Shown one piece after another: positions 3,183 to 49,580 of a DNA stretch of 64,000 nt (positions are counted from its first letter, which is position 1; each line of letters starts with the position of its first letter). Source of the DNA: an uncultured Fibrobacterota bacterium (GTDB taxonomy: Bacteria; Fibrobacterota; Chitinivibrionia; Chitinivibrionales; CAYFVL01). The position numbers and the translations under genes are program-made. The notes below the pieces were generated by a model that was given only the letters and a program-made list of their open reading frames with translations, did no database searches and was not told where the DNA came from. The DNA is taken from assembly GCA_964586285.1 (NCBI GenBank), contig CAZPHU010000005.1, forward strand, positions 3,813 through 67,812. The letters run 5' to 3'.

Positions 3183-4474
3183 CTGACTATACCGCCTGCA
3201 AGAGAAACGTTGGGGAACATGGTAACCGTTCCATACGGAGTGCTCACTCCCCTGGCAGCATCCATGACCGAAACAACAACCTGATACTTTATTTTTTCCT
3301 GTGCGACAATCTTTACCTCTTCATGATCTTCAAAAGCCTTAATCGAGCTGTAGTCATTTTTCGACCAGGTATTAAAAAGTTTGAGAAGTGTCGCGTTTTT
3401 ATCCAGACCGGGATGGGCAATCGATAAAACACGGTGGAGCGCCCTGCGCTTAACATCCGCGAGCTTTCGGTTCAGAGTCTCATAGTCGTACTTTCCATTT
3501 TCAAGCATGGGTATTTGCGCAATACCATCGCTGCCCTGAGCTGAATCATTATGGAAATAATGAACAAGATCGAAGCCTTTTTCGGTGATAATCACCCCCA
3601 AATTCAGTTTTGCGTTTTGTTTGGATTCGGGTGATGGGTTACCGGTTATGCTCGATTCAGCTGATTGAGGCAGTTTGAGTTCGATTGCGCCGATTTTTAC
3701 GAATTCCGCAGAGCTTAACAGAAGAGGAATAAGAATAACCATCAGGTTCATCATGGGAGCGATATTCGGCTCTGTGTCTACTTCTTCCCTGATCCTTCGG
3801 TTACTTACTTTATAACCGGTGCGCCGGTTTTCTCCGGGATTAAGCAGCTGCAAAACCGCAACGGCGTATCTGTCGATAACGCTTATCGCACAGTCGACTT
3901 TATTTCGCAAAACCGAATACATGAAGACGCAAGGAACGCTAATAATCAATCCCAGAAGGGTAGTGTTCATTGCGGTTGAAATTCCCTGAGCCAGCAAGGA
4001 TGATTTCAATATCGGATCGATATCCGGCCGGGCTACCGCGGCAAATGACAGTATCAATCCGTAAATAGTTCCCATCAGACCCAGCAGAGTTGATACATTA
4101 CCAAACATTAGAACCAGGCCGATACCCTTTTCAAGTCTAGGGATCACATCCAGAGACTCTTCTTCCATCGCGTTTCTGATCATCTGTGGAGTCTGTAAAT
4201 ACTTTTCGATACCTGCGCCCAGTACCCGGGCAAGCATGAGCGATCTGTCGCCGTCGCACAATTGTCGGGCCTGTTTGTATTTACCGTCCTTTATCAGGAT
4301 TTTGAGTTTTTGAATGAAAAGCTCCGCATCGACATTTGTATACCGGCTCAGGGCAACCACGCGCTCAACTACTATACCCAAAGCCGTAACGCCCAATGTG
4401 GTCAGGATCCACATAAAAACAAATCCGTCGCGCTCCGGACTAAATGCCATTAACAATTCTGAAAGGATATTCAT
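3179..4474 (-). CDS. ExbB (MotA/TolQ/ExbB) - ExbD-like fusion protein
   Basis: 431 aa single ORF. Residues 1-215 are ExbB-like ('GNVSTLLGLMGTIYGLILSF', 'AQGISTAMNTTLLGLIISVP'). Residues ~225-431 are ExbD-like ('EPNIAPMMNLMVILIPLLL...IELKLPQS'). Confidence 0.8.
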   Translation of the reverse strand: MNILSELLMAFSPERDGFVFMWILTTLGVTALGIVVERVVALSRYTNVDAELFIQKLKILIKDGKYKQARQLCDGDRSLMLARVLGAGIEKYLQTPQMIRNAMEEESLDVIPRLEKGIGLVLMFGNVSTLLGLMGTIYGLILSFAAVARPDIDPILKSSLLAQGISTAMNTTLLGLIISVPCVFMYSVLRNKVDCAISVIDRYAVAVLQLLNPGENRRTGYKVSNRRIREEVDTEPNIAPMMNLMVILIPLLLSSAEFVKIGAIELKLPQSAESSITGNPSPESKQNAKLNLGVIITEKGFDLVHYFHNDSAQGSDGIAQIPMLENGKYDYETLNRKLADVKRRALHRVLSIAHPGLDKNATLLKLFNTWSKNDYSSIKAFEDHEEVKIVAQEKIKYQVVVSVMDAARGVSTPYGTVTMFPNVSLAGGIVR

Positions 4475-13031: not shown

Positions 13032-13317
13032 AATCTTTAGTTCCGGTTAAAAAATTAAAAATTGAATCCGGTCGGCAGCAAATCCATTCCCAATCCGGGG
13101 ACTATTCTCTATCTATTATTGACGTTACCCGATAGATAGACACTGCTGACCGTCAGATAACCCTAATCTGACAGTTACCAACCCCGGCTTTCAGTTTTCC
13201 CCAGAGAGGAATATCATCTGTAAAGGGCCGAGCTTATCTAATTCGGTTCATTTGTTACGAAAGATGCGGGTTCAAAATCCACACGGATCGGAACATATGC
13301 CCCATACCTAAGTATAA

Positions 13318-15873
13318 TTAAACAGCAACTATATTGACCAGTTTTCCCGGAACAACAATGATTTTGCGCACGGTCTTGCCTTCCAGATGCGGCTGTACTT
13401 TCGGTAATTTCAGCGCCTGATGTTCCAAATCCTCTTTCTGAGAATCACGCTCCGCCTCGAACTGTCCTCGCAGTTTACCGTTGATCTGCACAACAATATT
13501 CACCGTATCTTCCACAACAAGCTCGGGGTCATACTGCGGCCATGATGCATGACAGATCAGTGATTTTTCACCCAGAAGATTCCAAAGCTCCTCGGCTATA
13601 TGTGGAGCAAAAGGAGCAATAGTCCTAAGGAAAATCTTCACAGTCTCGATCGGCAGACGCTCAACCTGAGTTGCCGCGTTGACGAACACCATAACCTGTG
13701 CGATGGCAGTATTCATCTTATCTATTGCTTCGGTATTTTCAGTTACAATCTTTATTGTCTTATGCAATCGCCGCCACAAGTCCGACTCTTCGCTTCCCGC
13801 ACAAACGGTCAGCTTTTCGTTGAGTTCTCCTGTGCGCTCATCTACAACCAGACGCCAGATTCGCTGAAGAAGACGATATACTCCTTCAACCCCCTTCATC
13901 TGCCAGGGTGCACTTGCACTTAACGGCCCCATAAAAAGCTCGTACAACCTCATGGCATCCGCCCCATACTCACTAATGACATCTTCGGGGTTTACCACAT
14001 TGTAGCGAGATTTGGACATTTTTTCTATCTGAGTTTTCACCGCCACGCCGCTGTTTTTCACAAACCATGAACCGTTTTTCTCTTCAACCTCATGTGGATA
14101 ATAGTATTTACCATTATCATCCTGGTATGAATAAGCCAGAATCATCCCCTGATTGAACAGCTTCTGGAATGGCTCTTTGGTGGATACAAGTCCGCAATCG
14201 TAGAGAACCTTGTGCCAAAAACGCGCATACAAAAGATGCAATACCGCGTGCTCCGCCCCGCCTACATACAAGTCAACCGGCATCCAGTATTCTTCGACCT
14301 CTTTTGACCATGGTTGTTCCCGGTTGTCAGGATCGAGAAAGCGCAGATAGTACCAGCAGGAACCGGCCCACTGCGGCATGGTATTGGTTTCGCGCATGCC
14401 GAGTCTACCGTCCGGAAGTGTAATCATGAGCCAATCATCTCCCGCGCGGGCAAGCGGAGGTCGCCCGTCAGGTGTCGGAGAATACTCATCTATTTCGGGT
14501 AGCTCCACCGGTAAATCACTCTCCGGCAAGGTAATGACCGTTCCATCTTCCATATGAATTATCGGAAAAGGCTCACCCCAGTACCTCTGACGAGAAAACA
14601 GCCAGTCCCTGAGTCTGTATTGCACCTTTTTAGTTCCGTGCTTGCGCTCTTCCAGCCAGAAAATAATTTTCTTCTTTGCATCATGTACCGAAAAGCCGTT
14701 TAGAAAATCGCTGTTGACAAGCTTTCCCTCACCCGTATACGCAGCCTCCTGAACCGAAACCTCTCCTCCTGAAATAACCTCGATTATGGGAAGATCAAAC
14801 TTGGAGGCAAACTCATGATCTCTCTCATCGTGTGCGGGAACAGCCATAATAGCTCCCGTCCCGTATGATAGAAGTACATAATCGGCAATCCATACAGGCA
14901 GAGCCTTCCCGTTGACAGGATTTACGGCATACGCTCCGGTGAAAACACCTGTCTTCTCTTTGGCCAGATCGGTACGATCAAGATCGGATTTGTTTCGGGC
15001 GGCATCTATATATGCATCGACATCTTCACGACATGATTCCTCGGTTATTTTTGAAACCAGCGGATGTTCCGGCGCAAGCACACAATAGGTCGCCCCGAAA
15101 AGCGTGTCGGGCCTGGTGGTAAAGACCGTAAAGGATTCTTGAATGTTTTTTACCGGAAAAACTACCTCAGCCCCCTCACTCTTGCCGATCCAGTTTCGCT
15201 GCATGTCCTTGATGCTTTCCGTCCAATCAAGCTCTTCCAGGTCTTCCAGAAGACGTTCCGCATACGCGGTAATCCGAAGCATCCATTGCCGCATCAGTCG
15301 ACGTTCTACAACATCTCCGGTTTCCACATATTTTCCGTCTTTAACCTCTTCATTGGCCAGAACTGTTCCCAAAGCCGGACACCAGTTTACCGGTACGTCC
15401 GCCATGTATGCCAAACCTTTTTCGTAAAGCTTGAGAAAGATCCACTGAGTCCAGCGATAATATTCAGGAGAGGATGTATTGATCTCACGCTCCCAATCAT
15501 AGGAGAATCCAAGCCGATTGATCTGCGCTCGGAAATTGTCTATATTCCTTTTTGTAATGACAGAGGGGTGAAGATTTTCGCGCACGGCCGCACGTTCGGC
15601 GGGTAGTCCCAGAGCATCCCACCCCATGGGATGAAGCACGTTATAACCCTGCATTCGCCTTAGACGAGCGATTACGTCGGTTGCCGTATACCCTTCGGCA
15701 TGCCCCACATGTAAACCTGCTCCTGATGGATAAGGAAACATGTCGAGTACGTAATATTTAGGTTTGTTTTTTAACTCCCGCATATCCGTCGGAGTACGGA
15801 ATGCTTGTTTTTCTTCCCAGATTTTTTGCCATTTCGGCTCAATTTCCGAATGATTATACAGATTACTGCTCAT
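13318..15873 (-). CDS. leuS: Leucyl-tRNA synthetase
   Basis: '[16 protein letters not shown]' (HIGH), 'KMSKSRYN' (KMSKS), '[12 protein letters not shown]'. Start chosen at ATG 15873 (MSSNLYN...) after a GGGGGAGA SD. The track ORF extends to 15906. Confidence 0.97.
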
Positions 15874-36725: not shown

Positions 36726-38609
36726 ATGACCGTTGAACCACGCTCAGATTCCGAAGACGCTTTTTCGGATATACCGGCTAAGAGGACTCATCGACAGCCG
36801 GATAATAAAAGGAATATCGAAGCAAAACCAACAAGTACCCGCACAGATCTGGCGGGTTTGGGGATAAATACGTCCACCGGTACCAACATTTATGTAGGAA
36901 AAAAAATCACAGGATCCTTTTTACCCGAAACCCTGCGCAGGCTTAAGGATACCACCCTGGACGGTTTTTCAATCGAGACAAAATCGAAAGACGGCAAGGA
37001 AACCGATGTATGCCCAAAGAAGACTACGCGGTTTTCGCAGACGACGATCGAAACTTCTCCAATTGCGCCTGTGAAGAACAAAGCAAAAACAGACTGTCCG
37101 ATTGTGGTCGAGGAGTCCTCGGAAAGTTCAGTTGAGAAGCAGAAGAATAAGTCTTCTAATGCCGGGCATAAGAAAGATAAGAAATCCTCACATCACATAT
37201 CGGTTGATATTTCATCCGGTTACATGGGAAGCTTGCCCTCCGAGGATGATCGTGTGTCGCTTGGTTCGGGTATTTCGGCAGGAGTTTTGGGAAGCGGAGG
37301 GATGGCCAAGGTTTATAAGATCTGGAATGAACAGCTGGAGATATTCCGCGCCGTGAAGGTACTGCTTCCTTCCAATCATCAGGAAACCTGGAGGCGATTT
37401 GAAACCGAGGCTAAGATATCGGCCAAACTTCATCATCCAAACATCGTAGAGGTATATACGATTGGGCAATGGCACGGGTTGCCCTTCATGGAGATGGAAA
37501 TGGTACAGGGAAAACCTCTGACCGATTTGATTTCCAGGTTCAAGCCTCTTCCCTGCTTTGTATGCTCAGCCGTGGCACTTCAGATTTCTCGCGCCCTTGC
37601 CTATGCGCATCGCCTGGAGGTTCTCATATACGGGAAGAAGTACAAAGGCATTATCCATCGTGATCTTAAGCCGTCAAACATAATGATTGATGAAAGCGGA
37701 GTGGTCAAACTGATGGATTTCGGTGTGGCGCGGCCGGTCGAAACCGGCCTGCATACAATCAACACCACGAATCTTGTAGGCACAATGCAGTATTTTTCGC
37801 CCGAGCAGATTAACGGGTATCCGATCGATCAGCTGTCCGACATATATTCTTTCGGGGCGGTACTGTATGAGATGATATGCGGTGTCAATCCTTTCCCGCA
37901 AAGCAAGATGGTTCAGCTGATACAGGCAAAAACAAAAAATGTGTTCAAACGCCTGGAGGATTACAGCTTGACCTTTGACGGCAGACTATCCTCCGTCTCC
38001 CAGATATGTTTACGAACCGATAAGAACACGCGTTACAATGATTCCGCGCAACTGCAGGAGCATCTGGAGGAAATTCACAGATCATTTAAGATCGGTTCTC
38101 CGGAAGATGTGGTTGTCTCATTTCTCAATGATCCGGAGTCGATGTACAGGGAAGAGAAAGAAAGATATTTACAGTCGGTACACGCGGTAGCGCAACAGCC
38201 TCCAGATCCGCCTGTTCGGAGGGTGCAAGCCGTAAACACGGATGCGGACACCGAGCGCTGCGAATCGTCATCAATTTACGATCAGGAGCAAGGCGCATCA
38301 AAAATCAGGGCTGCAAAAGAGAGTGAATTTACGAATAAACAGTTTGATATCGGGGATCAGACGCAGAAATGCGGCTTCGTAGTAACTTCCGAGAAAAGCC
38401 GGCCGGAGAATGAAGAGGAGTTTGAGGAGCCAAAGCCCAAAAGAAAACTGCCTTTGCTTGTTTTGATCATTCTTGCTTCTTTGCTTGTTGTTGTCGGTAT
38501 TATTTTGTTTCTTCGAAGTACGTCAGGTACGCAAAAGTCCGTGTCACATATTAAAAAAGGCTCGATATCATGTGTATCGTTGAGTGCGCCTTTGAAACGA
38601 GAGGTTTGA
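36726..38609 (+). CDS. Hanks-type Ser/Thr protein kinase, C-terminally membrane-anchored
   Basis: 627 aa. 'GSGGMAKVYKI...AVKVL', 'HRDLKPSNIM', 'DFGVAR', 'YFSPEQ', and a C-terminal TM 'LPLLVLIILASLLVVVGIILFL' followed by only ~30 aa. Confidence 0.9.
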   Translation: MTVEPRSDSEDAFSDIPAKRTHRQPDNKRNIEAKPTSTRTDLAGLGINTSTGTNIYVGKKITGSFLPETLRRLKDTTLDGFSIETKSKDGKETDVCPKKTTRFSQTTIETSPIAPVKNKAKTDCPIVVEESSESSVEKQKNKSSNAGHKKDKKSSHHISVDISSGYMGSLPSEDDRVSLGSGISAGVLGSGGMAKVYKIWNEQLEIFRAVKVLLPSNHQETWRRFETEAKISAKLHHPNIVEVYTIGQWHGLPFMEMEMVQGKPLTDLISRFKPLPCFVCSAVALQISRALAYAHRLEVLIYGKKYKGIIHRDLKPSNIMIDESGVVKLMDFGVARPVETGLHTINTTNLVGTMQYFSPEQINGYPIDQLSDIYSFGAVLYEMICGVNPFPQSKMVQLIQAKTKNVFKRLEDYSLTFDGRLSSVSQICLRTDKNTRYNDSAQLQEHLEEIHRSFKIGSPEDVVVSFLNDPESMYREEKERYLQSVHAVAQQPPDPPVRRVQAVNTDADTERCESSSIYDQEQGASKIRAAKESEFTNKQFDIGDQTQKCGFVVTSEKSRPENEEEFEEPKPKRKLPLLVLIILASLLVVVGIILFLRSTSGTQKSVSHIKKGSISCVSLSAPLKREV

Positions 38610-38613
38610 TAGA

Positions 38614-40350
38614 ATGATTGTTGGGAAAAGACTGAAAAAACTTCCTGTAATTGTAGGTGTTGATGCGGAAAAATGCGTCAATTGCCATGCCTGCATAACA
38701 GCCTGTCCGGTCAAGTATTGTAACGACGGCAGCGGCGACTTTGTAAGTGTAAATCCATACATGTGTATAGGATGCGGTAATTGTATAAAAAAGTGCACCC
38801 ACGGTGCCAGGTATATGGTGGATGATTTTGATCTTTTCATGGAAGATCTTGCGGCCGGGGAGAATATCATTCTTATCGTCGCACCTTCTGTAGTGGCGAA
38901 TTTTCCCAATGATTATTTGCATTTAAACGGGTGGTTTAAAAGCCTTGGGGTAAAAGCGGTATTTGATGTGAGTTTCGGTGCGGAGTTGACTGTAAAGTCT
39001 TACATAGATCTTCTTCAGAAACAAAATTCTCCCGAAACGATTATCTCCCAGCCGTGTCCTGCAATAGTAACATATATTCAGATGTATATCCCTGAGCTTC
39101 TAAATAACCTGGCTCCGGTAGACAGTCCGATGCTTCACACCATGCGAATGATCAAAAAGTACTTTCCCGAGTATGCCGAGTGTAAAATAGCCGCTCTATC
39201 GCCATGTCTGGCCAAAAAGAGAGAATTCTTCGAAACTGGAATGGGAAATTATAATATCGGCTTCAAATCGATACGTACCTGGTTGGAAAAACATGAGGTT
39301 AATCTCTGCGATTATTCACCCGATGATTATATCAATCCACCCGCTGAGAGGGCGGTTGGCTTTTCAAGCCCCGGAGGTCTTCTTAAAACTGCCGAACGCT
39401 GGGTTCCCGGCATAACGGAACAGTCACGAAAAATAGAGGGAACCGAAAACATCTATAGCTATCTTGATAAGTTATCAGAGTCGATTTTAAACCAAACAGC
39501 TCCTGTTCTGATCGACTGTCTTAACTGCGAGCGCGGTTGTAACGGCGGACCTCTGACGGTTACCGACAACGCTCCCCTTGACGACATGGAGAAAGTTGTT
39601 TCCAGACGCTTACAACAGGCTGTGGATTCGTATGAAGAAGGTGAAGTTGAGCAAGAAACTCAGCTGTCAGTTGACAGAATTGATGAGGTACTGAAACAGT
39701 ATTGGGAAAACGGACTCTATCGACGCAACTATTCGGATCTAAGTATTAACAATCGCATAATTGTTCCCTCCGAGGAGGAACTTAAAAAGATCTATAAACT
39801 GATGCGTAAAACTTGCGATGCTGACTTTTACAACTGCAGCTCCTGTGGATACGGTACCTGCGAACAAATGGCAATCGCCATATATAACGGATTGAACCGC
39901 CCCGAAAACTGTCATTTCTACCTTGCCGCCGAAGCTACGATGCAAACCGCGGAGATCTCGGAAAATGAAAAGCGACTCCGAACAATACTATCTTCCACAT
40001 CCGCAGGTTTTTGCCTTGCGGATGAAGATTACAGGCTTATTGTTGTGAACTCCGCCTTCTGCGACTATATGGGAATGGAAAGAGAAAAGCTTCTTGGTAC
40101 TACATTCCTGACCAAACAGTTTAAGCGCTGTTCGGCGGGTAATCCATATTCTTCGGAAATAAAGATCAGCCGTCCGAATGGAACCGCTGCCTACTATCTT
40201 TTCATCGCCAATCCATATATAGACGAAAACAAGGAGACAGTCGGATATTTTGCTTTGGTTGTAGATGTAAACAGATATAAGAACAATAAATCAACTACCG
40301 CAGGCACGAACGTGCCTAAGTCAAAGCCGCATAGCGACCTTCTAGCATAA
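38614..40350 (+). CDS. Sensory-type [FeFe]-hydrogenase-like protein (2x[4Fe-4S] ferredoxin + H-cluster domain + Cx2Cx4Cx16C + PAS)
   Basis: 578 aa. 'CVNCHACITACP' and 'CIGCGNCIKKC'. H-domain motifs are 'SQPCP' (vs TSCCP), 'SPCLAKKRE' (vs MPCxxKxxE) and 'CLNCERGCNGG' (vs CxxGCxxGG). 'CSSCGYGTC-x16-C' spans residues 408-433. C-terminal PAS 'LRTILSSTSAGFCLADEDYRLIVVNSAFCDYMG'. Confidence 0.85.
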   Translation: MIVGKRLKKLPVIVGVDAEKCVNCHACITACPVKYCNDGSGDFVSVNPYMCIGCGNCIKKCTHGARYMVDDFDLFMEDLAAGENIILIVAPSVVANFPNDYLHLNGWFKSLGVKAVFDVSFGAELTVKSYIDLLQKQNSPETIISQPCPAIVTYIQMYIPELLNNLAPVDSPMLHTMRMIKKYFPEYAECKIAALSPCLAKKREFFETGMGNYNIGFKSIRTWLEKHEVNLCDYSPDDYINPPAERAVGFSSPGGLLKTAERWVPGITEQSRKIEGTENIYSYLDKLSESILNQTAPVLIDCLNCERGCNGGPLTVTDNAPLDDMEKVVSRRLQQAVDSYEEGEVEQETQLSVDRIDEVLKQYWENGLYRRNYSDLSINNRIIVPSEEELKKIYKLMRKTCDADFYNCSSCGYGTCEQMAIAIYNGLNRPENCHFYLAAEATMQTAEISENEKRLRTILSSTSAGFCLADEDYRLIVVNSAFCDYMGMEREKLLGTTFLTKQFKRCSAGNPYSSEIKISRPNGTAAYYLFIANPYIDENKETVGYFALVVDVNRYKNNKSTTAGTNVPKSKPHSDLLA

Positions 40351-40385
40351 GAAAGCGGCGGTATAAACCACCGCTTTCTTATCTC
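40349..40385. terminator. Bidirectional terminator between the convergent hydrogenase-like and CotH genes
   Basis: GAAAGCGGCGG (40351-40361), loop tataaa, CCACCGCTTTC (40368-40378) with one mismatch, T-rich on both sides. Confidence 0.6.
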
Positions 40386-40458
40386 TTGCCCGGCAATACA
40401 GAAGTTTGCATCCGTTCGAGTCGGTGCATTTTTGGAACCGAAGGCCTTTTGAGTTTTT

Positions 40459-43230
40459 CTATTGACAAGAAGCTGTGAATTGCGTCAACTTTTCAGGAGA
40501 AATGGTTCTCTTAGGCTCCTTATTCCCGTCACTCCACTTCACGAACGATTTCCCCGTTGCCGGAATGACTTCCAAGGTCAAGGGAGAACCGCTGAAATAG
40601 GTTCCGGTATAAGGGTTTTCGAATATTTCCAGACCATTTATCAGAACAGCTCCATTCTCAACGTTTATGCTTAACTCGTACTCATCACCCAAATCAAAGT
40701 ATCTTTTCATTTGCTCAACAAAATATCCCTTGCGGTCCTGAGCAAATTCGTAGAGTTTATCAACTTCGTAATCCCAGTTCTTGAAACCCCACCGCTCGTA
40801 ATGACGTGATATTTCCGAACTGTAAATAGATTTAAACTCATCTATGCGCTTCTCTATCCTCTTTGTACGAAAGTTTGTATTTAGAAGCGTAGAAGTTATG
40901 GAAATAAAATCCGCCTTGAATTGTTCGTTTTGCAGCAGTGTTCTGAAAAGAAAAGTTGCATTTGCTCCATTTGGATAATCGGGTCCGATATCATTTGTAC
41001 AAAACTCAAACATATCAACATCGATATCCGAGTGTCCTTGAAATCCAAAATCGGTATCGTACAATATCCAGCGCCATTTCGAACCCGGCTGATAGGATCT
41101 CCAGAACTTGATGTTATTGGCGGGCCAGTCGGTATTTCCATAGAACATTTCCGAAGCCATATAAGTAGCATAGTTTAGAAGGTCAGCCTGGGATCTTACA
41201 TGTTGGTAAGGTTCATCTTTACTGATATCGTTTGCGCTCATGTAGTTTGTGAGTTCATCATATCGGGTTCGGTTGCCTGAGGTCACATCACCGATTGCCT
41301 TGATTATATCGAAATTTCCTTCTTCCAAACCGTAATTTGTCCAGAGGTAATCTTCGTTAAGCTTTTCGCGCAGATTGTAAATACCCCAATATGCCCCGTT
41401 TATATAAACTACCACCGGTCGGTACTTCTGGTAATCAAGATCCCGATCCTCAAGTAATGAACACATTAATACGTCACGAAACCCAGTTTTCCCACAGTTA
41501 CTTCCGTTATTTCTAAGAACAAACTTTTTAAACTTATCAAGATGCGGATATTCTGGAAACAGGGTCTGCTTCAATTCCGAGACACCGTATTGCCCTCGAA
41601 AATGAACCGATAAAGACTTCTGTTCGTTTGCTCTGCTCCAGTTACCAAATATCCGCAACCCAGCGTCATGAGCAAACATTTTGCTTTTGCTCTCATCATA
41701 CATTTCCACGGAAACCGCCACCTCCTTTTCGCCCCAGAAATTTGCGCCGAAATAAGGGAATACAGGACTCGCATGTTTTCCGTAAGAATATATGCCAGTG
41801 TCGGGATCAAAAAGCTGAGAAGAATCTGTCACCAGAGATACCACAGCCATATCGGTATTCTCTCTAATAAAAACACTTGCCGTATTCACAGAAGATGAAT
41901 ACTCGCCTCTTTTATAAGCGCGGGCTCGCACGACGGCGGTGGAGTCAAGTTTGAACGGCCTTTCATAAAGTATGCTTGACGTATCCGGAACTGATCCGTC
42001 CAGCGTATAGCGAATGATTGTGTTTGCGGGGGCGGCAATTCTTATATTCACCGGTGACTGAAAAAAACCACCTCCGGGTAAAATCTCCGGGGCAGGTGTT
42101 CTTTTTGCATGGCCTTCCGTCGCATTTTTTTCACCGGGTGTGGGCTGATCCGTTATCGAAACGAGGGATGAATCGGTCAAATTCCTGCGCATTGTAAATC
42201 CGCCGGGCAAATCCCTAAGATCCATTGAGTCCACAACTTTCCCATTCGAATCGGAGAGAAAAACGGTCTCGTTTCCTCCGAGAGAAAAATTAGTGTGGAA
42301 ATGTTTTTCACAAGTGATGAAATAAAAACCTTCAACCGTAAAAGATACCGATCCGACAAAATTATCGGGATTAGCCACCTCTACGGCATAGAACTTTGTA
42401 AGATCAAGCATCCCGTCTTTAATCAAAGGAATAGTGTAGATATCGCCTTCTTTGCCCGTACCGGTCAACTCGTGCTTGTATGACATCCATTCTTCTATGC
42501 CCTGTTGGTTTATGCGGATCAAAACCTTTTTATCCTTTTCGATGTATCCTTTGAATAGCAGACGATCATATCGTGACATATTAACGGTATCTGTTTTTCG
42601 CCATCCATCCCAACCCATATGTATAACAGCTGAGCGCCAACCAAGTTGAGTGTTTTGAGCCATATTCATTGTTGCGGAGAGGACGGTATTTGTATCTCCT
42701 TCCAAAACACCACGATACCCTCTTTCAAGCCTGTAAGGCTCGATACTACTTTTCCCCAAACCACTCTGATCATCCTCATCCGCCCATGCATATGTATACC
42801 TGGTTATACCGCCAACCGTATCACCTCCCTGATCAGCTTCCCGATAATCCTTTCCTGAAGCCATTATAAGGATAAATTGTCCCGGAGCAATAACGGTATC
42901 GGGAATTGCCCATCGGGTAAGCGAGTCTCTATCGTCTGAAAGGTAGTATGAGCCCAAATCTATCGAATCATCCGACCTGTTGTACAACTCAATCCAGTCC
43001 GGATCGTCATAGTCTCTGTCTTTTAGACGCTCGTTTACAGCCGCCACTTCACTGATTATCAGGTCGGGAAACTCGTTTTTCTCTTCGACTCCCTCCACCG
43101 GATTAAAAATGAAAGGCAGCGCAGTTTCTTCTCTGTCGGTGCATGAAAAAACCAAAGCAAAACAAAAGAAAACAAAAAAACAAAGACTCAATCTTCTATT
43201 CATATATCTGAAATAAGAGGGTTGTTTCAT
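40459..43230 (-). CDS. CotH-family (atypical kinase fold) lipoprotein with lamin-tail domain and chitobiase-C/Fn3-like module
   Basis: 923 aa. Lipobox 'FALVFSC'. LTD 'LIISEVAAVN...DWIELYNRSDDSIDLGSYYLSDD'. 'IIRYTLDGSVPDTSS'. CotH core 'FVLRNNGSNCGKTGFRD...VVVYINGAYWGIYNLREK...WRWILYDTDFGF'. Confidence 0.85.
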   Translation of the reverse strand: MKQPSYFRYMNRRLSLCFFVFFCFALVFSCTDREETALPFIFNPVEGVEEKNEFPDLIISEVAAVNERLKDRDYDDPDWIELYNRSDDSIDLGSYYLSDDRDSLTRWAIPDTVIAPGQFILIMASGKDYREADQGGDTVGGITRYTYAWADEDDQSGLGKSSIEPYRLERGYRGVLEGDTNTVLSATMNMAQNTQLGWRSAVIHMGWDGWRKTDTVNMSRYDRLLFKGYIEKDKKVLIRINQQGIEEWMSYKHELTGTGKEGDIYTIPLIKDGMLDLTKFYAVEVANPDNFVGSVSFTVEGFYFITCEKHFHTNFSLGGNETVFLSDSNGKVVDSMDLRDLPGGFTMRRNLTDSSLVSITDQPTPGEKNATEGHAKRTPAPEILPGGGFFQSPVNIRIAAPANTIIRYTLDGSVPDTSSILYERPFKLDSTAVVRARAYKRGEYSSSVNTASVFIRENTDMAVVSLVTDSSQLFDPDTGIYSYGKHASPVFPYFGANFWGEKEVAVSVEMYDESKSKMFAHDAGLRIFGNWSRANEQKSLSVHFRGQYGVSELKQTLFPEYPHLDKFKKFVLRNNGSNCGKTGFRDVLMCSLLEDRDLDYQKYRPVVVYINGAYWGIYNLREKLNEDYLWTNYGLEEGNFDIIKAIGDVTSGNRTRYDELTNYMSANDISKDEPYQHVRSQADLLNYATYMASEMFYGNTDWPANNIKFWRSYQPGSKWRWILYDTDFGFQGHSDIDVDMFEFCTNDIGPDYPNGANATFLFRTLLQNEQFKADFISITSTLLNTNFRTKRIEKRIDEFKSIYSSEISRHYERWGFKNWDYEVDKLYEFAQDRKGYFVEQMKRYFDLGDEYELSINVENGAVLINGLEIFENPYTGTYFSGSPLTLEVIPATGKSFVKWSDGNKEPKRTISPEKLTQFTASCQ

Positions 43231-44717
43231 TGCACTTCTCCCGGATTACCGCCTATTTTTTCGGAACGTTTCCAATTCTTTGGCAAAGGTCCACAACCGC
43301 CCACGCGCACCAGTGAATACCCTTCGCCGTCCGCGGCCGCCGCCCAGGCCCGGCGGTCATCATACGTAATCTGGTCGACATTTGCATACACCGGTTTGTG
43401 TTCTCCACTCTCTGAGACGTAGGAATCTACAGGTTGTGCTATGCTTACAGTCTCCCCTTTATTGGATAATTTTCCAGAGTAAAAGAATACTTGTACCGAA
43501 TTCCCCCTGTATTTCTCTTTAAATAGAGTGGAATCGTTTGCGTTTACTAAAAGTATTGTTTCTTCGGCACCGATAACCATGTCTTGCGGGAAGGTGAAAT
43601 CCACTCCACGCACTTTCCAACTAAACGGCATGTATGGAGTCGTTCCAAGAACAACCGCAGTATCGCCGAGGTTGGTTATCTCAAGAAATTCAAAATTTCC
43701 GGGTGAGGGATGATACATTAGTTCCGATATGATTATGTGTCTTGAACATACTGTTGAGTCATTATGTTTTCCCGGCGTAGGTTGGGAAAGAGGCCCGACA
43801 GTAAGGCGGTCCTCAAGTATTCCGATCGACTTATCCCTGACAGCTCCGGATGTCTGCATTCCACTACAGTATCCGGTCATTTTTCCGTTTAAGGCGGATA
43901 GTAGAAAGATGCATTGTCCCGCATTTCTAAAATCCAACTCCGGCGCATCCTCGGATTTTATGACAAAGAATCCACCCGGTTTCATGACCGCATTTGACTT
44001 TACAGTATAATACTCTGAAAAATCTTTTCGTGTTGTAATAAGCCATCCCGTAATGTCAACTATCTTCGATTCACCGTTAAACAGCTCGATGAATCCGCCC
44101 GAATCATTCCAATTGGGTTTGAATTCATTTATCAATACTTTTGAATAAGGAACGGAAGGATCAGTGAATCCGGGGGAGCCCCCTGTGTCGGCGCTGTTTC
44201 TCCAGTAATCATGATAATCCTGTTTGTAAACGGGTGAATCATCTATGCTCACCAGCGAGTACCCCCTACCATCAGCGAGAACAGGCCAGGGTAGCTCATT
44301 ATCCCAGCTCATCTCCGTTATTACCGAACCGAACGGTGAAATTAACTCAATGCTTTCCCCTTCATTTGCAAGTCGTCCGGTGAAAGGCCCGGCACAAGGA
44401 CTGTTTGGGTATCGTTTCCTGTATTCTTCGGTAGAATTTGTCACCACCATATATGCTCCGGAGGATAAGACCGGAGCCTCTGGACCAAACTGAAAATCAA
44501 TACCACCCGTAATGCGGATCCCCTTAAGCTCTACATCCACATCACACACATTTCGTATTTCAACATACTCAAGGGTATCGGTCTCTGAAAACCTGTACAT
44601 TATTTCTGTGAAGGCAAGCGGCATGTCGTCATAATCCGCAGCCGTTAAACCTGGTGATGCACATTTGATAGTACAAAGATAAAGTATAACGCAAAGAAAC
44701 CGTTTTACATTTTTCAT
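43227..44717 (-). CDS. Secreted protein with three lamin-tail domains (LTD)
   Basis: 496 aa with a signal peptide. LTD starts are 'FTEIMYRF..LEYVEIRN', 'LINEFKPN...GFIELFN' and 'IISELMYHP..FEFLEITN', each followed by 'L.N.GE.i.L'. ATGA overlap with the CotH start. Confidence 0.8.
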   Translation of the reverse strand: MKNVKRFLCVILYLCTIKCASPGLTAADYDDMPLAFTEIMYRFSETDTLEYVEIRNVCDVDVELKGIRITGGIDFQFGPEAPVLSSGAYMVVTNSTEEYRKRYPNSPCAGPFTGRLANEGESIELISPFGSVITEMSWDNELPWPVLADGRGYSLVSIDDSPVYKQDYHDYWRNSADTGGSPGFTDPSVPYSKVLINEFKPNWNDSGGFIELFNGESKIVDITGWLITTRKDFSEYYTVKSNAVMKPGGFFVIKSEDAPELDFRNAGQCIFLLSALNGKMTGYCSGMQTSGAVRDKSIGILEDRLTVGPLSQPTPGKHNDSTVCSRHIIISELMYHPSPGNFEFLEITNLGDTAVVLGTTPYMPFSWKVRGVDFTFPQDMVIGAEETILLVNANDSTLFKEKYRGNSVQVFFYSGKLSNKGETVSIAQPVDSYVSESGEHKPVYANVDQITYDDRRAWAAAADGEGYSLVRVGGCGPLPKNWKRSEKIGGNPGEVQ

Positions 44718-45487
44718 TATATAGTCCTTCGGTAAAATGCCGGTGTATCGGGGCAGTCCGATTCAAACCACTCACACCTAAACACTTCATTCATGGCATT
44801 CGCGTATTTAGAAAAACTTGCTTTTTTCAGACCGAAATAGTGTATGAGATCAAAAAACCATAATGGAAAAGTTTGACGATATGTTTTTAGCTCAAGAATT
44901 ATATTACATCCGAGTGGGAAGATTTCCTCAAAGTCGTATGAGTATAGCCTGCCGTTGTCGGGGATAAGAGAATAATCATTCTGCCGGTGACATACCAGTT
45001 CCTTATCAAAAGTTATGCGGGCATATTTGTCTACTGTCGAAAACCAGGCCAGTCTTTTGTATTGCGTAAATACCTTCGGAGCACAGTTAAAAAAATGATA
45101 TTTCCCCAAGAACTCATCATCGTCCCGACTATCCAAATACTGCTGAGGTTCGCTCGTAAAAGGCACTCTTGTTTTTCTTATCACCATTCCTTCACGATAC
45201 TTTACCTCCGCAAAGTACGGCGGTAGCGGATTCTCCCCATAAGATCTCATTCTCAAGTTGAATCGCTTAGGCTCTTGCTCCACACGCCATTTCAAAAAAA
45301 GATAGTCTTCAGTATCGAAATAAAGTGAATTGATCGTATAAAAACCACCGGGTACTAACTTTGAATACGGGTCCATATCGCAATATGATTTAATAAACTC
45401 CGAGACGGGATAAACGTAGTCTTGCGGTATGAGATATTTCAGCTCATATCGTGACAGTCTTTGTTTTTCAAAGGAATGGCTATTCAT
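44717..45487 (-). CDS. VTC-domain (polyphosphate polymerase / CYTH-like tunnel) protein
   Basis: 256 aa, cytoplasmic. 'LSRYELKYLIP', 'INSLYFDT', 'FNLRMRSY', 'AEVKYREG...RKTR'. These resemble the bacterial proteins annotated as polyphosphate polymerase domain-containing. Confidence 0.75.
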   Translation of the reverse strand: MNSHSFEKQRLSRYELKYLIPQDYVYPVSEFIKSYCDMDPYSKLVPGGFYTINSLYFDTEDYLFLKWRVEQEPKRFNLRMRSYGENPLPPYFAEVKYREGMVIRKTRVPFTSEPQQYLDSRDDDEFLGKYHFFNCAPKVFTQYKRLAWFSTVDKYARITFDKELVCHRQNDYSLIPDNGRLYSYDFEEIFPLGCNIILELKTYRQTFPLWFFDLIHYFGLKKASFSKYANAMNEVFRCEWFESDCPDTPAFYRRTI

Positions 45488-46754
45488 TACCTTTTATCAC
45501 CTGAAAGTTTTTATCTAAATAGTTTTTCAGCTCACCGTTAGTGAGCATGCCGGATATATTAAGCAGCTTTACATACGCGATGTAAATATCAAACCTGAAT
45601 TCTTCTATTTCCATGGCGCTTTCAAGAATACTTTCACGAGTCTTGAGAATGAGTAAAGGATCGGTGCCGGCAACACGAAGATACTCCTTCATTTCCTCAT
45701 TTCTATTGAGATCATCGGTTCTTTTTTCCAGAATTGTTATTTGCTTGAGCATTATTTGCATATCGCTTTTAAGCTCGGTGATTCTTTGGTGAATCTCTTT
45801 TCTCTTTTCAAGGTACTTGCCTTCGTCTTTAAGTAAAGCTGCTTTACGACGATGTATATCATTCTTATCGGGAATCGGAATGGATATACCGGTACCGACA
45901 TGCATGTTTTCATAAGCGGGAGTGCGATCCTTACGTATGCCTTCATAAATTCTATGATCATATCCAAATTCTAAAAACTGAACCAGGTCTCTACCCTCCG
46001 ATCGCTCAAGTTCATAGCGGCTTTGTGATTCCTTCAACTCCCACCAGGCAAGCTGGATATGCACGTTGAGAGTATCAGGATTAATGTGCTCCAGCAAACT
46101 GTCGATGTCTCTTAGACGCACAAAATTTGTAGTATCGAAATTGTTTTCCGCTGTAAACGGACGATATTCGGATATCTCCCTGATTATGTCTTCAAGTTTT
46201 TTTTCGTTACGGATAATTTGCAGACGCATTTTCGTGAGTTCATCCTGAGCCTCAACAAGGTTTGAAAAATCAAAATCCTCCTCATTCATTCTGCTTCTGT
46301 AAACAGTAATTTTGTCCTCGTATACTTCCCTAAGCTCAAGCCTGTGGCGCATCTCTATTCTCTTGTGAATAAGCTCCAGAACCAATTTATAACGATCATA
46401 GAGCTTTTCATTCAACATTTCTTTTTCGGCCCACCGATGATAATGGAGTCTGTTGTGCGACAACCTTTTTCCGGTAAAAGTCTCTCCTAAACCGCGCATC
46501 TCCAAGCGGGCCGCGAATTTATGTCTATTGACATCCAGCCCGTCCAAGTCATATCGAAGCTCCACTCCGTCAAGAAATGGGACTGACCACAAGGAATTCT
46601 CAAGATAAGCTACTGTTTTTCTTCGGCTTTCCAGTCGCATGTCCTCATCGGCTCCCGCCAAAAAAGACTCAACCGCAACAGTTTGTGCATCACTGCCAAA
46701 AACTAATCCCAGAAGTATAAGAACTTTCAACCTTATCATATCTCTTTTCGCCAC
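45480..46754 (-). CDS. Putative outer-membrane factor (TolC-like) protein
   Basis: 424 aa. Signal peptide 'MIRLKVLILLGLVFGSDAQ' and long helical, charged repeats. The assignment rests on composition and context only. Confidence 0.45.
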   Translation of the reverse strand: MAKRDMIRLKVLILLGLVFGSDAQTVAVESFLAGADEDMRLESRRKTVAYLENSLWSVPFLDGVELRYDLDGLDVNRHKFAARLEMRGLGETFTGKRLSHNRLHYHRWAEKEMLNEKLYDRYKLVLELIHKRIEMRHRLELREVYEDKITVYRSRMNEEDFDFSNLVEAQDELTKMRLQIIRNEKKLEDIIREISEYRPFTAENNFDTTNFVRLRDIDSLLEHINPDTLNVHIQLAWWELKESQSRYELERSEGRDLVQFLEFGYDHRIYEGIRKDRTPAYENMHVGTGISIPIPDKNDIHRRKAALLKDEGKYLEKRKEIHQRITELKSDMQIMLKQITILEKRTDDLNRNEEMKEYLRVAGTDPLLILKTRESILESAMEIEEFRFDIYIAYVKLLNISGMLTNGELKNYLDKNFQVIKGNE

Positions 46755-46758
46755 CTTT

Positions 46759-47742
46759 TTACTTACTGCTGATTATTACTTTCTCTCCCAGAAGAAACCT
46801 GTTGCGCTCAGGTATCCTAATAGAAACTTCCCTACCCCAAACCGATATGTCCGGACGGCTTCTCAATCGTAGAGGAAATTCCACGATCCGCGCCCCCACT
46901 CCAACCACTTCTCCGGTCACGAAATTGTGGTTATCGGCAACAGACTTAACCGATACCACATCACCCCTTTGAATACTGCTGTAGATTTTCTCGTGAATGT
47001 AGCCGCGGATAATTTCGGGGGTCTGTGAATGAACCGTCATTATCGGTTCAAATGCCGAAACCTTTTCACCAACGCCATAATTTACCGATCCCACCACTCC
47101 ATTTATCACCGAGGTTAAAACCAGATTTCGGAGCTGCGTCACAATAAGATCTTTCTCTCTACTTAAGTTTTGAATCCTTACCTTTTGAGTCTCCGCCTTT
47201 TCTCCCCTACTCTTTTTCAGAATTTCAATCTGATATCTCATCGATTGCTCTTCCAACTGTAGTTGCTTTTGATAATTTGAGATTTTTTTCATTAAAGGAT
47301 TCTCCGAATCATCCATCACAACCGGTTGCGTTATGCTTTCGAGTCTGGATGTAAGCTCAAGATTTTTGCGCATTTTCCTTTCAAGCTCGTCAATAGAGTA
47401 TTGGATTTCGCTTTTTTTCTTTACGAAATCGGCCCTTACGGCAGCTATCCTCGACTGAAGTTCATCCCCGTCTATATTCTTGAAAGTTGCATAGTTATTC
47501 AGTTGCTGTTCGATGATCGCCAATTTAAGGCGAAGCTCCGGCATATCCAAAAGGGCCAAAGTATCACCGATTGATATTGATTGACCGGGTATGGCGGTTA
47601 CCTGCTTTACTTCGACCGCCTTCTCGAAATTCAGTTTCGTTTCGCGGCTTTCGGCGATTCCGTAAAACTGTGCCCTCTCCGAACTGAACCGACTCGACAT
47701 ACCGATCAACACCAACACGGCAGTAAGCCAGATTAAGATCAT
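46759..47742 (-). CDS. HlyD-like membrane-fusion (periplasmic adaptor) protein
   Basis: 327 aa. N-terminal TM 'MILIWLTAVLVLIG', lipoyl-like 'VTAIPGQSISIGDTLALLD', a ~150-aa coiled coil, and a C-terminal beta region 'GVVGSVNYGVGEKVSAFEPIMTV...GYIHE'. Confidence 0.7.
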   Translation of the reverse strand: MILIWLTAVLVLIGMSSRFSSERAQFYGIAESRETKLNFEKAVEVKQVTAIPGQSISIGDTLALLDMPELRLKLAIIEQQLNNYATFKNIDGDELQSRIAAVRADFVKKKSEIQYSIDELERKMRKNLELTSRLESITQPVVMDDSENPLMKKISNYQKQLQLEEQSMRYQIEILKKSRGEKAETQKVRIQNLSREKDLIVTQLRNLVLTSVINGVVGSVNYGVGEKVSAFEPIMTVHSQTPEIIRGYIHEKIYSSIQRGDVVSVKSVADNHNFVTGEVVGVGARIVEFPLRLRSRPDISVWGREVSIRIPERNRFLLGEKVIISSK

Positions 47743-47752
47743 CCGTTTGATA

Positions 47753-48466
47753 TTACACCTCCGCCGTTAATGTCTGGTTTATAAGATTGATCGATTTTAA
47801 GGTATCGATTTTTTGAAGAGCATGCGCCAGCTCGGCTGAATTATTTGTGTTTTTTAACTTGATCTGATATGCATATTCTATTCTTTTTCCCTGTGAAGCC
47901 TCTCTGACCGTCACCAGAACAAACTGCCTGCAATAAGCACGAAGCACTGTTTCGATACTCTGCTTGACTCTAGGCTCATCTTCCACATTGAAACGAACGA
48001 TACCGTCAAAGGCGTTGGTGCGTATGGATGGAATGAAATGCAAGGCGGCGGAAGCGGTGCAGAAGGCAACCGTACCAATAACTGCTACAGTGTATGCGTT
48101 TACGCCGCATCCAATTCCAGCCGCAAGGGCGGCAAACATGAAAATAATATCCCGAGAATCCTTAAAATTGGTCCTGAACCGAACGATGGCCAAAGCACCG
48201 ATCATTCCAAGGCCGCGAGCCAGACTATCTCCGATGGCCTGCATGATAGTGGATGCCACAATGGAGCTAAGTACCAGGGATTGGACAAAGTTGTGATAAT
48301 ATGAAAGTCCGCGAAATGTTCGCTCATAGGTAAATGCTATCAGCATCGAAAGCACAAAAGCCAGAATGGATGAGAAAAGAACCGTTATTAATCCCGGATT
48401 TATGGAACTTGTCTGTACGGTAAAATAATCTAACACCTCTACCTGCCTTAATTGGAATGTGTACAT
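47753..48466 (-). CDS. DUF4956-family integral membrane protein
   Basis: 237 aa, ~4 TM. 'GMIGALAIVRFRTNFKDSRDIIFMFAALAAGIGCG' matches the family hallmark as I remember it. It has a soluble C-terminal ~90 aa. Confidence 0.75.
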   Translation of the reverse strand: MYTFQLRQVEVLDYFTVQTSSINPGLITVLFSSILAFVLSMLIAFTYERTFRGLSYYHNFVQSLVLSSIVASTIMQAIGDSLARGLGMIGALAIVRFRTNFKDSRDIIFMFAALAAGIGCGVNAYTVAVIGTVAFCTASAALHFIPSIRTNAFDGIVRFNVEDEPRVKQSIETVLRAYCRQFVLVTVREASQGKRIEYAYQIKLKNTNNSAELAHALQKIDTLKSINLINQTLTAEV

Positions 48467-48560
48467 GACTAGGACTTTTTTAATCGCACAACCACACTGC
48501 AGATAATAAGCCCTGCATTACTGTTTCGCCTCTTTAGTATCCTAATATACCGACTCTGTT

Positions 48561-48589
48561 CTAACATTTTCCTAACATCCACCTAACAT
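48561..48589. repeat. Three perfect CTAACAT direct repeats at exact 11-bp phasing (Pho-box-like operator candidate)
   Basis: CTAACAT at 48561, 48572 and 48583, separated by 4-nt spacers TTTC and CCAC. On the minus strand a TATATT (48549-48544) lies 11 nt downstream of the repeats. The operon ATG is at 48466. Confidence 0.6.
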
Positions 48590-48881
48590 TTCGTTATTTC
48601 GCTAAATGGTTGGTTCTTTTTGGAAAAAAATCAAAACAAAACCTCTTTTCTTACAAAAATTATTAATAAATGTTAAAAAAAATCAGGAGATGTAGATGCT
48701 TTTAAAGGAAATGTCGATTTTTCAGACTACTATCATTTATCTGTATTTTCTTCCATGCACAAAGGTTTAAACACAATTTAATGTATCTTTCAATGAGTGC
48801 ACTTGGACCGTTAGTCCAGAAGATAGTCAAAACGTATTTTTGTGGTATTCTCAGAGAAATAAACAACGAAGGGAGTATCTG

Positions 48882-49580
48882 ATGATTTTTCTAGAAAACA
48901 AATGGGCTTTAGTAACCGGCTCCAGTCGAGGTATTGGCCAACAGATTGCGCTGGGTCTTGCAAAGAGAAAATGTAATGTGATCGTTCATGGAAGAAAAGC
49001 GGATAATGCGTGCCAAACGCTTGAGCTTCTAAAAGAGTATGATGTTCTGACCCACTGTGTTTCGGGAGAGCTTTCGTCACCGGATGAGGTAGCGGGTATA
49101 ATCGATCAAGTCAAAAATGGGCCTGGAAAAGTCGATGTCCTGTACAACAACGCCGCAATTCAGAATGCCTGGAAACCGATATGGGAGATAACCCATGAAG
49201 AATGGCTGGAATCCTTTGAGATTAACTTTTTCTCGGTGATCGCCTTGTGCAATGCATTTGCACCTGGAATGAAAGAACGTGGTTATGGACGTATAATCAA
49301 CCTGACTTCAGGGATTAAAGATGTGCCCAATCTTTCACCTTACAGCACATCCAAAGCAGCTATAGATAAATACACCCAGGACCTTGCTTTCGAACTTAAG
49401 GGCACGAATGTCTTGGTTAACAGGGTGGATCCGGGATGGCTGAGAACGGATCTGGGCGGTCCAAACGGGATGTTTTCGGTTGAAACCGTTATCCCCGGAG
49501 CACTTGTACCGGCACTTTTCGAGGACAACGGCCCAAGCGGTAATTTTTACGCCGCACAAGATTTTAAATATCTGGATTAG
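48882..49580 (+). CDS. SDR-family oxidoreductase
   Basis: 'ALVTGSSRGIGQQ', 'NNAA', 'YSTSKAAIDK'. ATG 48882 follows a GAAGGGAG SD. Confidence 0.85.
   Translation: MIFLENKWALVTGSSRGIGQQIALGLAKRKCNVIVHGRKADNACQTLELLKEYDVLTHCVSGELSSPDEVAGIIDQVKNGPGKVDVLYNNAAIQNAWKPIWEITHEEWLESFEINFFSVIALCNAFAPGMKERGYGRIINLTSGIKDVPNLSPYSTSKAAIDKYTQDLAFELKGTNVLVNRVDPGWLRTDLGGPNGMFSVETVIPGALVPALFEDNGPSGNFYAAQDFKYLD

Follow-up and report, generated by a model that had tools for sequence, protein, structure and literature searches.

Pho boxes, the operators read by PhoB/PhoP-type regulators of the OmpR family, consist of direct-repeat units of 11 nt whose consensus depends on the taxon, and PhoB binds them head-to-tail (PMC4415409). 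In Escherichia coli, the box reads CTGTCAT-N4-CTGTCAT, lies 10 bp upstream of the -10 element (PMC4415409, PMC1906773) and replaces the -35 element. In cyanobacteria, SphR boxes are built of 8-bp repeats (CTTAACCT) separated by 3-bp linkers, and no fewer than three of these stand in tandem, three units being the rule (PMC1906773). PhoP of Bacillus subtilis recognises TT(A/T/C)ACA boxes that come as four imperfect units. Here, we examine three phased copies of CTAACAT in a 64-kb stretch of contig CAZPHU010000005.1 from an uncultured Fibrobacterota bacterium (64,000 nucleotides, hereafter the window), where they lie between a leftward six-gene operon encoding VTC-domain and CotH-type proteins and a divergent SDR gene. 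We favour, with a confidence slightly above even, the reading that this array is a Pho box, i.e., a putative PhoB/PhoP-type operator of the leftward operon.

Direct reading of the + strand places the repeats at 48561-48567 (repeat 1, proximal to the leftward promoter), 48572-48578 (repeat 2, in the middle) and 48583-48589 (repeat 3, operon-distal), with a period of exactly 11 bp across tCTAACATtttcCTAACATccacCTAACATttcg. This bears out a first-pass annotation of the same DNA, which had given CTAACAT at 48561, 48572 and 48583 with 11-bp phasing. On the - strand, the order is ATGTTAG-gtgg-ATGTTAG-gaaa-ATGTTAG-aacagagtcgg-TATATT, and repeat 1 would occupy approximately -30 to -24 relative to the predicted - strand start. 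Tandem Repeats Finder reported a period-11 array at 48561-48591. CTAACAT occurs four times on both strands of the window, i.e., as the three array units and once more at 62153. In an unbiased 7-mer search, the array was the only 7-mer present three times at a 10-12 bp period, and no such triplet arose in 300 windows simulated under a first-order Markov model, in which the 6-mer equivalent had a mean of 0.013 per window. No second site was recovered in the window by a two-unit search (≤3 mismatches) or a weight-matrix scan. Pho boxes are recognised by at least two direct repeats at 11 bp with a core of ~7 bp and a variable spacer of ~4 bp, and the array presents this arrangement. Specifically, the core bases of the three units are identical at 21/21 positions and the internal 4-bp spacers (TTTC and CCAC) differ at three of four. 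Diverged spacers between perfect cores argue against a recent slippage duplication, and we read the pattern as the signature of selection on the cores. Rfam gave no match in the window at gathering thresholds, the intergenic region yielding only a meaningless snoRNA match (E = 0.49), and a tRNA search of the window found none.

The likeness to the E. coli PhoB and B. subtilis PhoP architectures that had been proposed for the repeats is sound, given that core plus spacer and the 11-bp period match. CTAACAT has 5/7 bases in common with CTGTCAT and the same 7-bp core and 4-bp spacer, and on the operon strand a gap of 11 nt separates the proximal unit from the -10, compared with 10 nt in E. coli. 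However, the operon strand reads ATGTTAG, which makes the site inverted when the CT..CAT bases are aligned, whereas aligning TGTTA to TGTCA makes it direct; sequence alone cannot separate the two readings. As for B. subtilis, CTAACA and TTAACA differ at a single base, several tandem units are used at the same 11-bp period, and the degenerate form YT[ACT]ACA captures sites at homologous operons. The window differs in carrying three perfect units instead of four imperfect ones and in coming from a diderm Fibrobacterota (TonB, ExbBD, AsmA and OEP genes are present). SphR boxes likewise have three tandem units with a C-T-(T)-A-A-C core and a period of 11 bp, but differ in consensus and phylum, and they have been described for activated pst and phoA genes in direct orientation.

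The same hexamer with the same phasing was found at Pho genes of other phyla. A scan of public genome contigs for CTAACA-N5-CTAACA-N5-CTAACA returned at least 119 loci, and the window's own genome is not among the matches listed. The matches listed fall into three classes: microsatellite-like arrays with identical spacers, mobile-element-like arrays, and arrays with perfect cores and divergent spacers from other diderm phyla. At least 13 loci of the last class have a Pho gene immediately downstream, at 16-151 bp, with CTAACA on the coding strand in 13/13. The downstream gene encodes PstS in L019, L040, L044, L083, L106 and L115 (PstS matches exceed NCBIfam curated cut-offs) and a frameshifted PstS-like protein in L077, alkaline phosphatase (phoA) in L112, PiT/PHO4 in L037, PhoU_div followed by PiT in L007, and a PhoB-like OmpR-family regulator of 230 aa in L036, L061 and L082, for which PhoB is the top NCBIfam match, below the equivalog cut-off. 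In five loci, a PhoB-like regulator lies 2.5-3.2 kb from the triplet. The hosts belong to Planctomycetota, Desulfobacterota, Calditrichota, Ignavibacteria and Lentisphaerota, two of which are members of the FCB group, like the window organism. The LeuRS of the window organism clusters at ≥90% identity with proteins named Chitinivibrionales and Chitinispirillaceae, which places it in Fibrobacterota. Hexamer, period and three units are identical to those of the window, and the consensus itself derives from gene context. The sites differ in that they point to their gene at the distances given above and that, in many, a fourth, degenerate unit stands a further 11 bp upstream; the window array lacks such a unit and faces away from the operon. 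With a weight matrix derived from the Pho-gene sites, the window array scored 32.9 bits and the next unrelated position 3.6, although the matrix was trained on sites chosen for perfect cores and tells little about tolerated variation. The gene context of these loci supports reading the phased CTAACA triplet as a putative Pho box in several phyla. The Pho-box resemblance noted in the first-pass annotation is thereby strengthened, both by this hexamer at 13 or more Pho loci and by an enrichment of PhoP-type pairs at homologous operons, described below. In the literature on TTAACA/CTAACA Pho-box consensuses, we found no paper describing the CTAACA type. The candidate consensus for these five phyla, CTAACA at an 11-bp period in three to four units, could serve as a starting point for reconstructing Pho regulons in phyla where genetics is lacking.

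Several of these loci carry further features. A Desulfatiglandales locus (L019) has arrays upstream of both pstS and a phoB-like gene (806-935 and 4035-4061), in the same sense. In a Desulfobacteraceae locus (L112, 5574-5679), two opposed CTAACA arrays stand back to back, one facing phoA and the other a 203-aa open reading frame (ORF). A phospholipase-D-like gene (L082, 871-2454) is divergent from the Pho box of the Calditrichia phoB-like gene, at 114 bp, and may be a phosphate-starvation lipid-remodelling gene. Two perfect triplets have their nearest gene on the TGTTAG side, as in the window: a lipoprotein-like 135-aa gene at 63 bp (L003, 2273-2300) and a secreted 146-aa protein at 72 bp (L073, 6112-6139). 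An Anaerolineaceae pstS locus (L004) was dropped as an inverted-polarity case; its units form a palindrome, TGTTAACA, that scores on both strands. Likewise, ORFs of ~140 aa to the left of several Pho boxes were rejected as divergent genes, being antisense artefacts of an upstream histidine-kinase gene.

Phased CTAACA hexamers are not confined to Pho genes. Prevotella/Bacteroidales loci (L027, L053, L057, L058, L076, L103 and L116) carry CTAACATAAACCTAACATAGACCTAACA arrays, often as inverted pairs near VapE-like and DUF6078 genes, and Firmicutes loci (L002, L008, L013, L017, L022, L059, L080 and L104) carry GTAACTAACA arrays with conserved flanks and a hairpin near an HNH gene. Both groups of 11-bp arrays are probably mobile-element or iteron sites instead of Pho boxes. 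Given that the Prevotella/Bacteroidales arrays are near-identical to the window's, we considered whether the window array is itself an iteron-like or recombinase-binding array of a mobile element or replication origin, which we judge extremely unlikely. The window holds no inverted partner array, the lone other CTAACAT being the one at 62153; no integrase, primase, relaxase or replication gene occurs among the ~38 larger window ORFs scanned with Pfam; and no repeats were noticed at the boundaries of the block that carries the array. Neither the inverted partner nor, among the scanned ORFs, the mobility or replication genes that would mark a mobile element were seen in the window.

Comparison with close relatives indicates which gene the repeats belong to. 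The SDR gene (232 aa, 48882..49580, + strand) starts 293 bp from the last repeat, and its orthologues are 83% identical in L201-L204, one of which comes from the window's sample, and 81% identical in L205. The L201-L204 loci are syntenic with the window minus one block, reading Pkinase, FeHyd/PAS, a 203-bp gap, SDR, GH9, cNMP and NFACT. The block missing from them comprises the operon and the repeat-bearing promoter (~8.4 kb, 40351..48765, approximate bounds), and CTAACAT is absent at their syntenic locus together with the operon. In L205, the gene divergent from SDR is an orthologue of the window's lamin-tail (LTD) protein (63% identity); it lies directly behind a homologous promoter region, and the DUF4956, adaptor-like, OEP and VTC genes are missing there. 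The intergenic sequence of L205 can be aligned to that of the window through the repeats, on the - strand (ATGTTAGGTGGATGTTAGGAAAATGTTAGAACAGAGTCGGTATATTAGGATACTAA in the window, ATGTTTGAC-AATGCTTAAAAAAAGTTAGAACGTCTAATGTATCTTCAGATACTAA in L205). The counterpart of repeat 1 is AAGTTAG (one mismatch), that of repeat 2 is ATGCTTA (three mismatches, plus a 1-nt deletion in the adjacent spacer) and that of repeat 3 is ATGTTTG (one mismatch). Since the repeats are absent where the operon is absent and persist as a degenerate copy in L205 with the LTD gene, they would belong to the leftward operon; on these alignments, the repeat region travels with the LTD/CotH operon, with or without VTC, and not with SDR. 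An alignment of orthologous promoters, which had been proposed as a check, is favourable in one relative, L205, which keeps the degenerate copy; L201-L204 have neither repeats nor operon.

These relatives also bear on whether the array has any function. It could be a neutral tandem repeat, born of slippage or brought in on a horizontally acquired block, and the presence or absence of the 8.4-kb block among close relatives, the decay of the homologous array in L205 and the fact that the nearest DUF4956 homologues share just 58-60% identity with the window protein are all in keeping with such an origin. We nevertheless regard it as very unlikely, because slippage would have copied the spacers along with the perfect cores, the sequence equals a motif with an independent functional context in many genomes, and its position and gap to the -10 are conserved.

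A further possibility is that a Pho box drives a rightward transcript on the + strand, towards small ORFs or SDR, and that its proximity to the VTC operon is incidental. The first-pass annotation had named SDR as an alternative target, and its distance of 293 bp is correct. Polarity would then agree with all 13 of the 13 canonical promoters listed; TATTTC follows 6 nt after the last hexamer, comparable to TATATC/TATTCG at 7 nt in L036, L082 and L061; and two ATG codons lie downstream, at 48606 and, preceded by AGGAG, at 48696. They belong to two small ORFs in direct succession (29 aa and 24 aa; 48606-48770, + strand), neither of which is kept in L205. The SDR start, moreover, is further away than the 16-151 bp of canonical sites, no Rfam family matches the region, and the SDR-proximal ~110 bp (48770-48881) are common to relatives without repeats, so SDR has its own upstream region. 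Given that the repeat region co-occurs with the left operon and not with SDR, a rightward box is improbable, and SDR as the target is not upheld. In L205, a 17-nt direct repeat (aaaaatgtaaaatcatt, two copies, 760-805) lies between the degenerate box and SDR and is absent from the window.

We next turn to the promoter that would underlie a leftward Pho box. A -10-like hexamer, TATATT, lies at 48544..48549 on the - strand, where it follows repeat 1 after 11 nt; the first-pass annotation had placed it there (48549-48544), and our reading of the - strand agrees. A -35-like hexamer is absent 16-18 nt upstream, where the sequence reads GGAAAA. Just downstream of the -10-like hexamer is a conserved block, GATACTAA (48534..48541, - strand), which is identical in the window and L205. 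L205 also keeps the 11-nt gap and the -10 (TATCTT vs TATATT) ahead of this block, and conservation there supports a putative leftward core promoter at the TATATT position, with a transcription start region predicted near 48537 on the - strand. The array is thus placed just upstream of a predicted -10 in lieu of a -35, as Pho boxes are. These promoter calls derive from manual reading and conservation; a generic sigma-70/terminator scanner called nothing in 48300-49000, TATATT included. The start codon of the first operon gene needs revision. It had been given as ATG 48466, 78 nt from the -10, but is probably GTG 48436, ~108 nt away, because all 120 DUF4956 homologues listed and an independent gene call have 227 aa, aligning from GTG 48436. 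The longest ORF, from ATG 48466, adds 10 codons, and this 30-nt extension aligns with the noncoding 5' leader in L205.

Homologous operons in metagenomes provided a wider comparison. The cluster (DUF4956, adaptor-like, OEP, VTC and often LTD/CotH) is widespread among diderm bacteria without cultures, being kept in 80 retrieved metagenome loci (L121-L200) in two gene orders, with the adaptor-like gene beside DUF4956 in ~60/80, the shortest contigs excepted. Upstream of the 80 DUF4956 homologues, no exact or near-exact triplet (≤3 mismatches/18) was found. An unbiased hexamer search upstream of homologous operons, requiring three copies at a 10-12 bp period, returned a single case, L133, whose coding strand has four TTAACA-type units at 11 bp (aTTAACAtaaaaTTAACAaaactTTAGCAcatttTTAACA) 77-120 bp ahead of the start. 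The pair pattern [CT]T[ACT]ACA-N5-[CT]T[ACT]ACA occurred within 250 bp upstream of 8/46 DUF4956-first operons, compared with 0.095 expected, and ranked first of 360 permuted-motif controls (control mean 0.32). All 604 kb of loci contain 11 such PhoP-type pairs, eight of them upstream of DUF4956-first operons and two upstream of the LTD/CotH part. The pairs are on the coding strand in L133, L139, L161 and L200, and on the non-coding strand, as in the window, in L129, L136, L140 and L144. Conservation at homologous promoters, which a Pho box should exhibit, is thus present in the L205 copy and the 8/46 pairs, though arrays are missing at many other promoters.

The loci with non-coding-strand pairs (L129, L136, L140 and L144) share a consensus extended -10, TGTATAAT, and, ~20 nt ahead of it on the coding strand, a conserved TTGTTA(A/G)-N4/5-TGTGA(A/G). 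This conserved element raises the question of which strand is read. Another OmpR-family regulator could recognise TGTTAG/TGTGAA direct repeats on the operon coding strand and activate from approximately -41, an ArcA-type TGTTA or ResD-type TTGTGAA site being comparable. ArcA, a gammaproteobacterial redox regulator, binds direct-repeat sites of TGTTA spaced 11 bp centre-to-centre, and the operon strand of the window has three TGTTA at 11 bp. Under such a regulator, the polarity problem vanishes, and three ATGTTAG units, the nearest of them 11 nt ahead of the -10 where a -35 is missing, would be classic activator geometry. The near-symmetry of TGTTA/TAACA and the likeness to the E. coli TGTCA make this a serious rival, even if an unlikely one on our assessment. 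Against it, the reverse complement matches 6/6, three times over, the hexamer at 13 or more canonical Pho promoters; no response regulator or kinase gene adjoins the operon in the window or the 80 related loci; no evidence ties the window operon to redox control; and L133 and L139 carry the half-site in the opposite polarity. To our knowledge, ArcA and ResD are moreover lineage-restricted regulators.

If the array is a Pho box, each 11-bp unit, with its conserved core and variable spacer, would bind one winged-helix domain, and the 11-bp phasing would line up three monomers head-to-tail along a single DNA face, from approximately -52 to -24. The promoter beneath would consist of the conserved -10 TATATT without a -35. 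Phosphate limitation would lead to phosphorylation of the regulator and, in turn, to altered transcription of the operon. That this regulator is the organism's own PhoB, like the sign of control, is what we infer.

Several observations nonetheless weigh against a Pho box. Chief among them is polarity: the operon strand reads TGTTAG, whereas CTAACA is on the coding strand at all of the 13 canonical Pho promoters listed, and the back-to-back arrays of L112 each point at their own gene, which suggests that polarity matters. The orientation caveat of the first-pass annotation, i.e., ATGTTAG on the operon strand, is accordingly real. All Pho-gene sites come from other phyla, no Fibrobacterota Pho promoter being among the sites compared, and the hexamer with this phasing is found in unrelated settings too, i.e., the mobile-element-like arrays of Prevotella and Firmicutes and sites by non-Pho genes. 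The array copy in L205 is degenerate and has lost its exact phasing. Six of the eight pair-bearing loci form one clade, with DUF4956 81-93% identical, leaving about four independent lineages plus the window. Finally, no arrays were found at a Fibrobacterota VTC cluster (L206) or a Desulfonema VTC cluster (L207), and the 6 kb around each of the 80 homologous operons contain no pst/pho gene.

Half-site orientation towards the controlled gene characterises activated members of the Pho regulon, and the window array does not have it. For activation, PhoB makes a fixed contact with sigma region 4, and a site in inverted orientation therefore departs from the canonical activating arrangement. We give repression and activation from the inverted site nearly the same odds, leaning slightly towards repression. 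Repression would proceed by occlusion of the -35/sigma region 4 area and would shut off a phosphate-consuming operon in starvation. It may be favoured by the inverted polarity, by the activator-independent extended -10 in the L129 clade and by the benefit of sparing phosphate from polyphosphate in starvation. A precedent is given by the repressed tagA and tagD promoters of B. subtilis, at which PhoP boxes are on the non-coding strand, the same polarity as in the window. Activation, on the other hand, might be favoured by a site exactly where Pho boxes replace the -35, with no -35 present, by the direct-polarity arrays in the sister loci L133 and L139, and by the finding that polyphosphate synthesis is Pho-linked and Pho-dependently induced in other bacteria (PMC4415409). 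The model that the repeats replace the -35, advanced in the first-pass annotation, thus stands as regards the 11-nt gap and the missing -35, but activation is not established and the polarity is inverted. With its inverted polarity, this operon family lends itself to testing whether, outside Firmicutes, the sign of PhoB control depends on box orientation.

The operon in question consists of six tightly packed genes on the - strand, encoding DUF4956, adaptor-like, TolC-like OEP, VTC, LTD and LTD-CotH proteins. Gene 1 (47753..48436, starting at GTG 48436) encodes a DUF4956 membrane protein of 227 aa (Pfam PF16316). Gene 2 (46759..47742, 327 aa) has a weak match to HlyD-type membrane-fusion, i.e., periplasmic adaptor, proteins (HlyD_3, E = 0.0015, below the Pfam cut-off), and gene 3 (45480..46754, 424 aa) carries a TolC-like outer-membrane efflux domain (PF02321, E = 3.4e-7, above the cut-off). 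Gene 4 (44717..45487, 256 aa) encodes the VTC-domain protein, with a polyphosphate-polymerase-type domain (PF09359, E = 1.8e-35); a PDB sequence search with this protein gave no match. Genes 5 (43227..44717, 496 aa, PF00932) and 6 (40459..43230, 923 aa, PF08757 and PF00932) encode an LTD protein and an LTD plus CotH kinase-like protein, respectively. An AlphaFold model of the DUF4956 protein (pLDDT 75) has ~5 transmembrane helices and a C-terminal alpha/beta, ACT-like domain, for which the best PDB matches are ACT-like folds (E about 1e-3). The modelled layout resembles that of MgtC/YhiD and is unlike the yeast VTC membrane channel. Among the ~38 larger ORFs scanned, there was no pst/pho gene and no OmpR-type regulator, and our literature search found no paper on DUF4956 or the DUF4956-VTC-CotH cluster.

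The first four products (DUF4956, adaptor-like, TolC-like and VTC) resemble an inner-membrane/adaptor/outer-membrane tripartite system built on a polyphosphate-polymerase-type domain, the adaptor being below Pfam cut-offs. It is conceivable, though we find it quite unlikely as a whole, that the operon forms an envelope-spanning polyphosphate system, in which a VTC polymerase, an MgtC-like DUF4956 protein, the adaptor-like protein and a TolC-like channel would feed surface LTD/CotH kinases, and that the inverted Pho box is a repressor site halting the export of phosphate-rich polymer in starvation. If true, such a system would be the diderm counterpart of PhoP-repressed teichoic-acid synthesis in Bacillus, and box polarity would encode the sign of control. 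A Pho-type operator in this operon family would in any case yield the testable hypothesis that the cluster acts in the phosphate economy, in polyphosphate synthesis and export or in scavenging. The main value of the putative Pho box lies in tying an uncharacterised, widespread cluster to phosphate regulation and in providing a candidate Pho-box consensus for little-studied phyla.

Two neighbouring features complete the description of these loci. In L206, which is a Fibrobacterota metagenome-assembled genome, a purple-acid-phosphatase-type gene (Pur_ac_phosph_N and Metallophos, 13126-14670) is convergent with the VTC gene of the cluster. To the left of the operon in the window (36726-40350), a Ser/Thr protein kinase gene is followed by one whose product is [FeFe]-hydrogenase-like and carries a PAS domain at its C-terminus, and this pair is kept in L201-L204.

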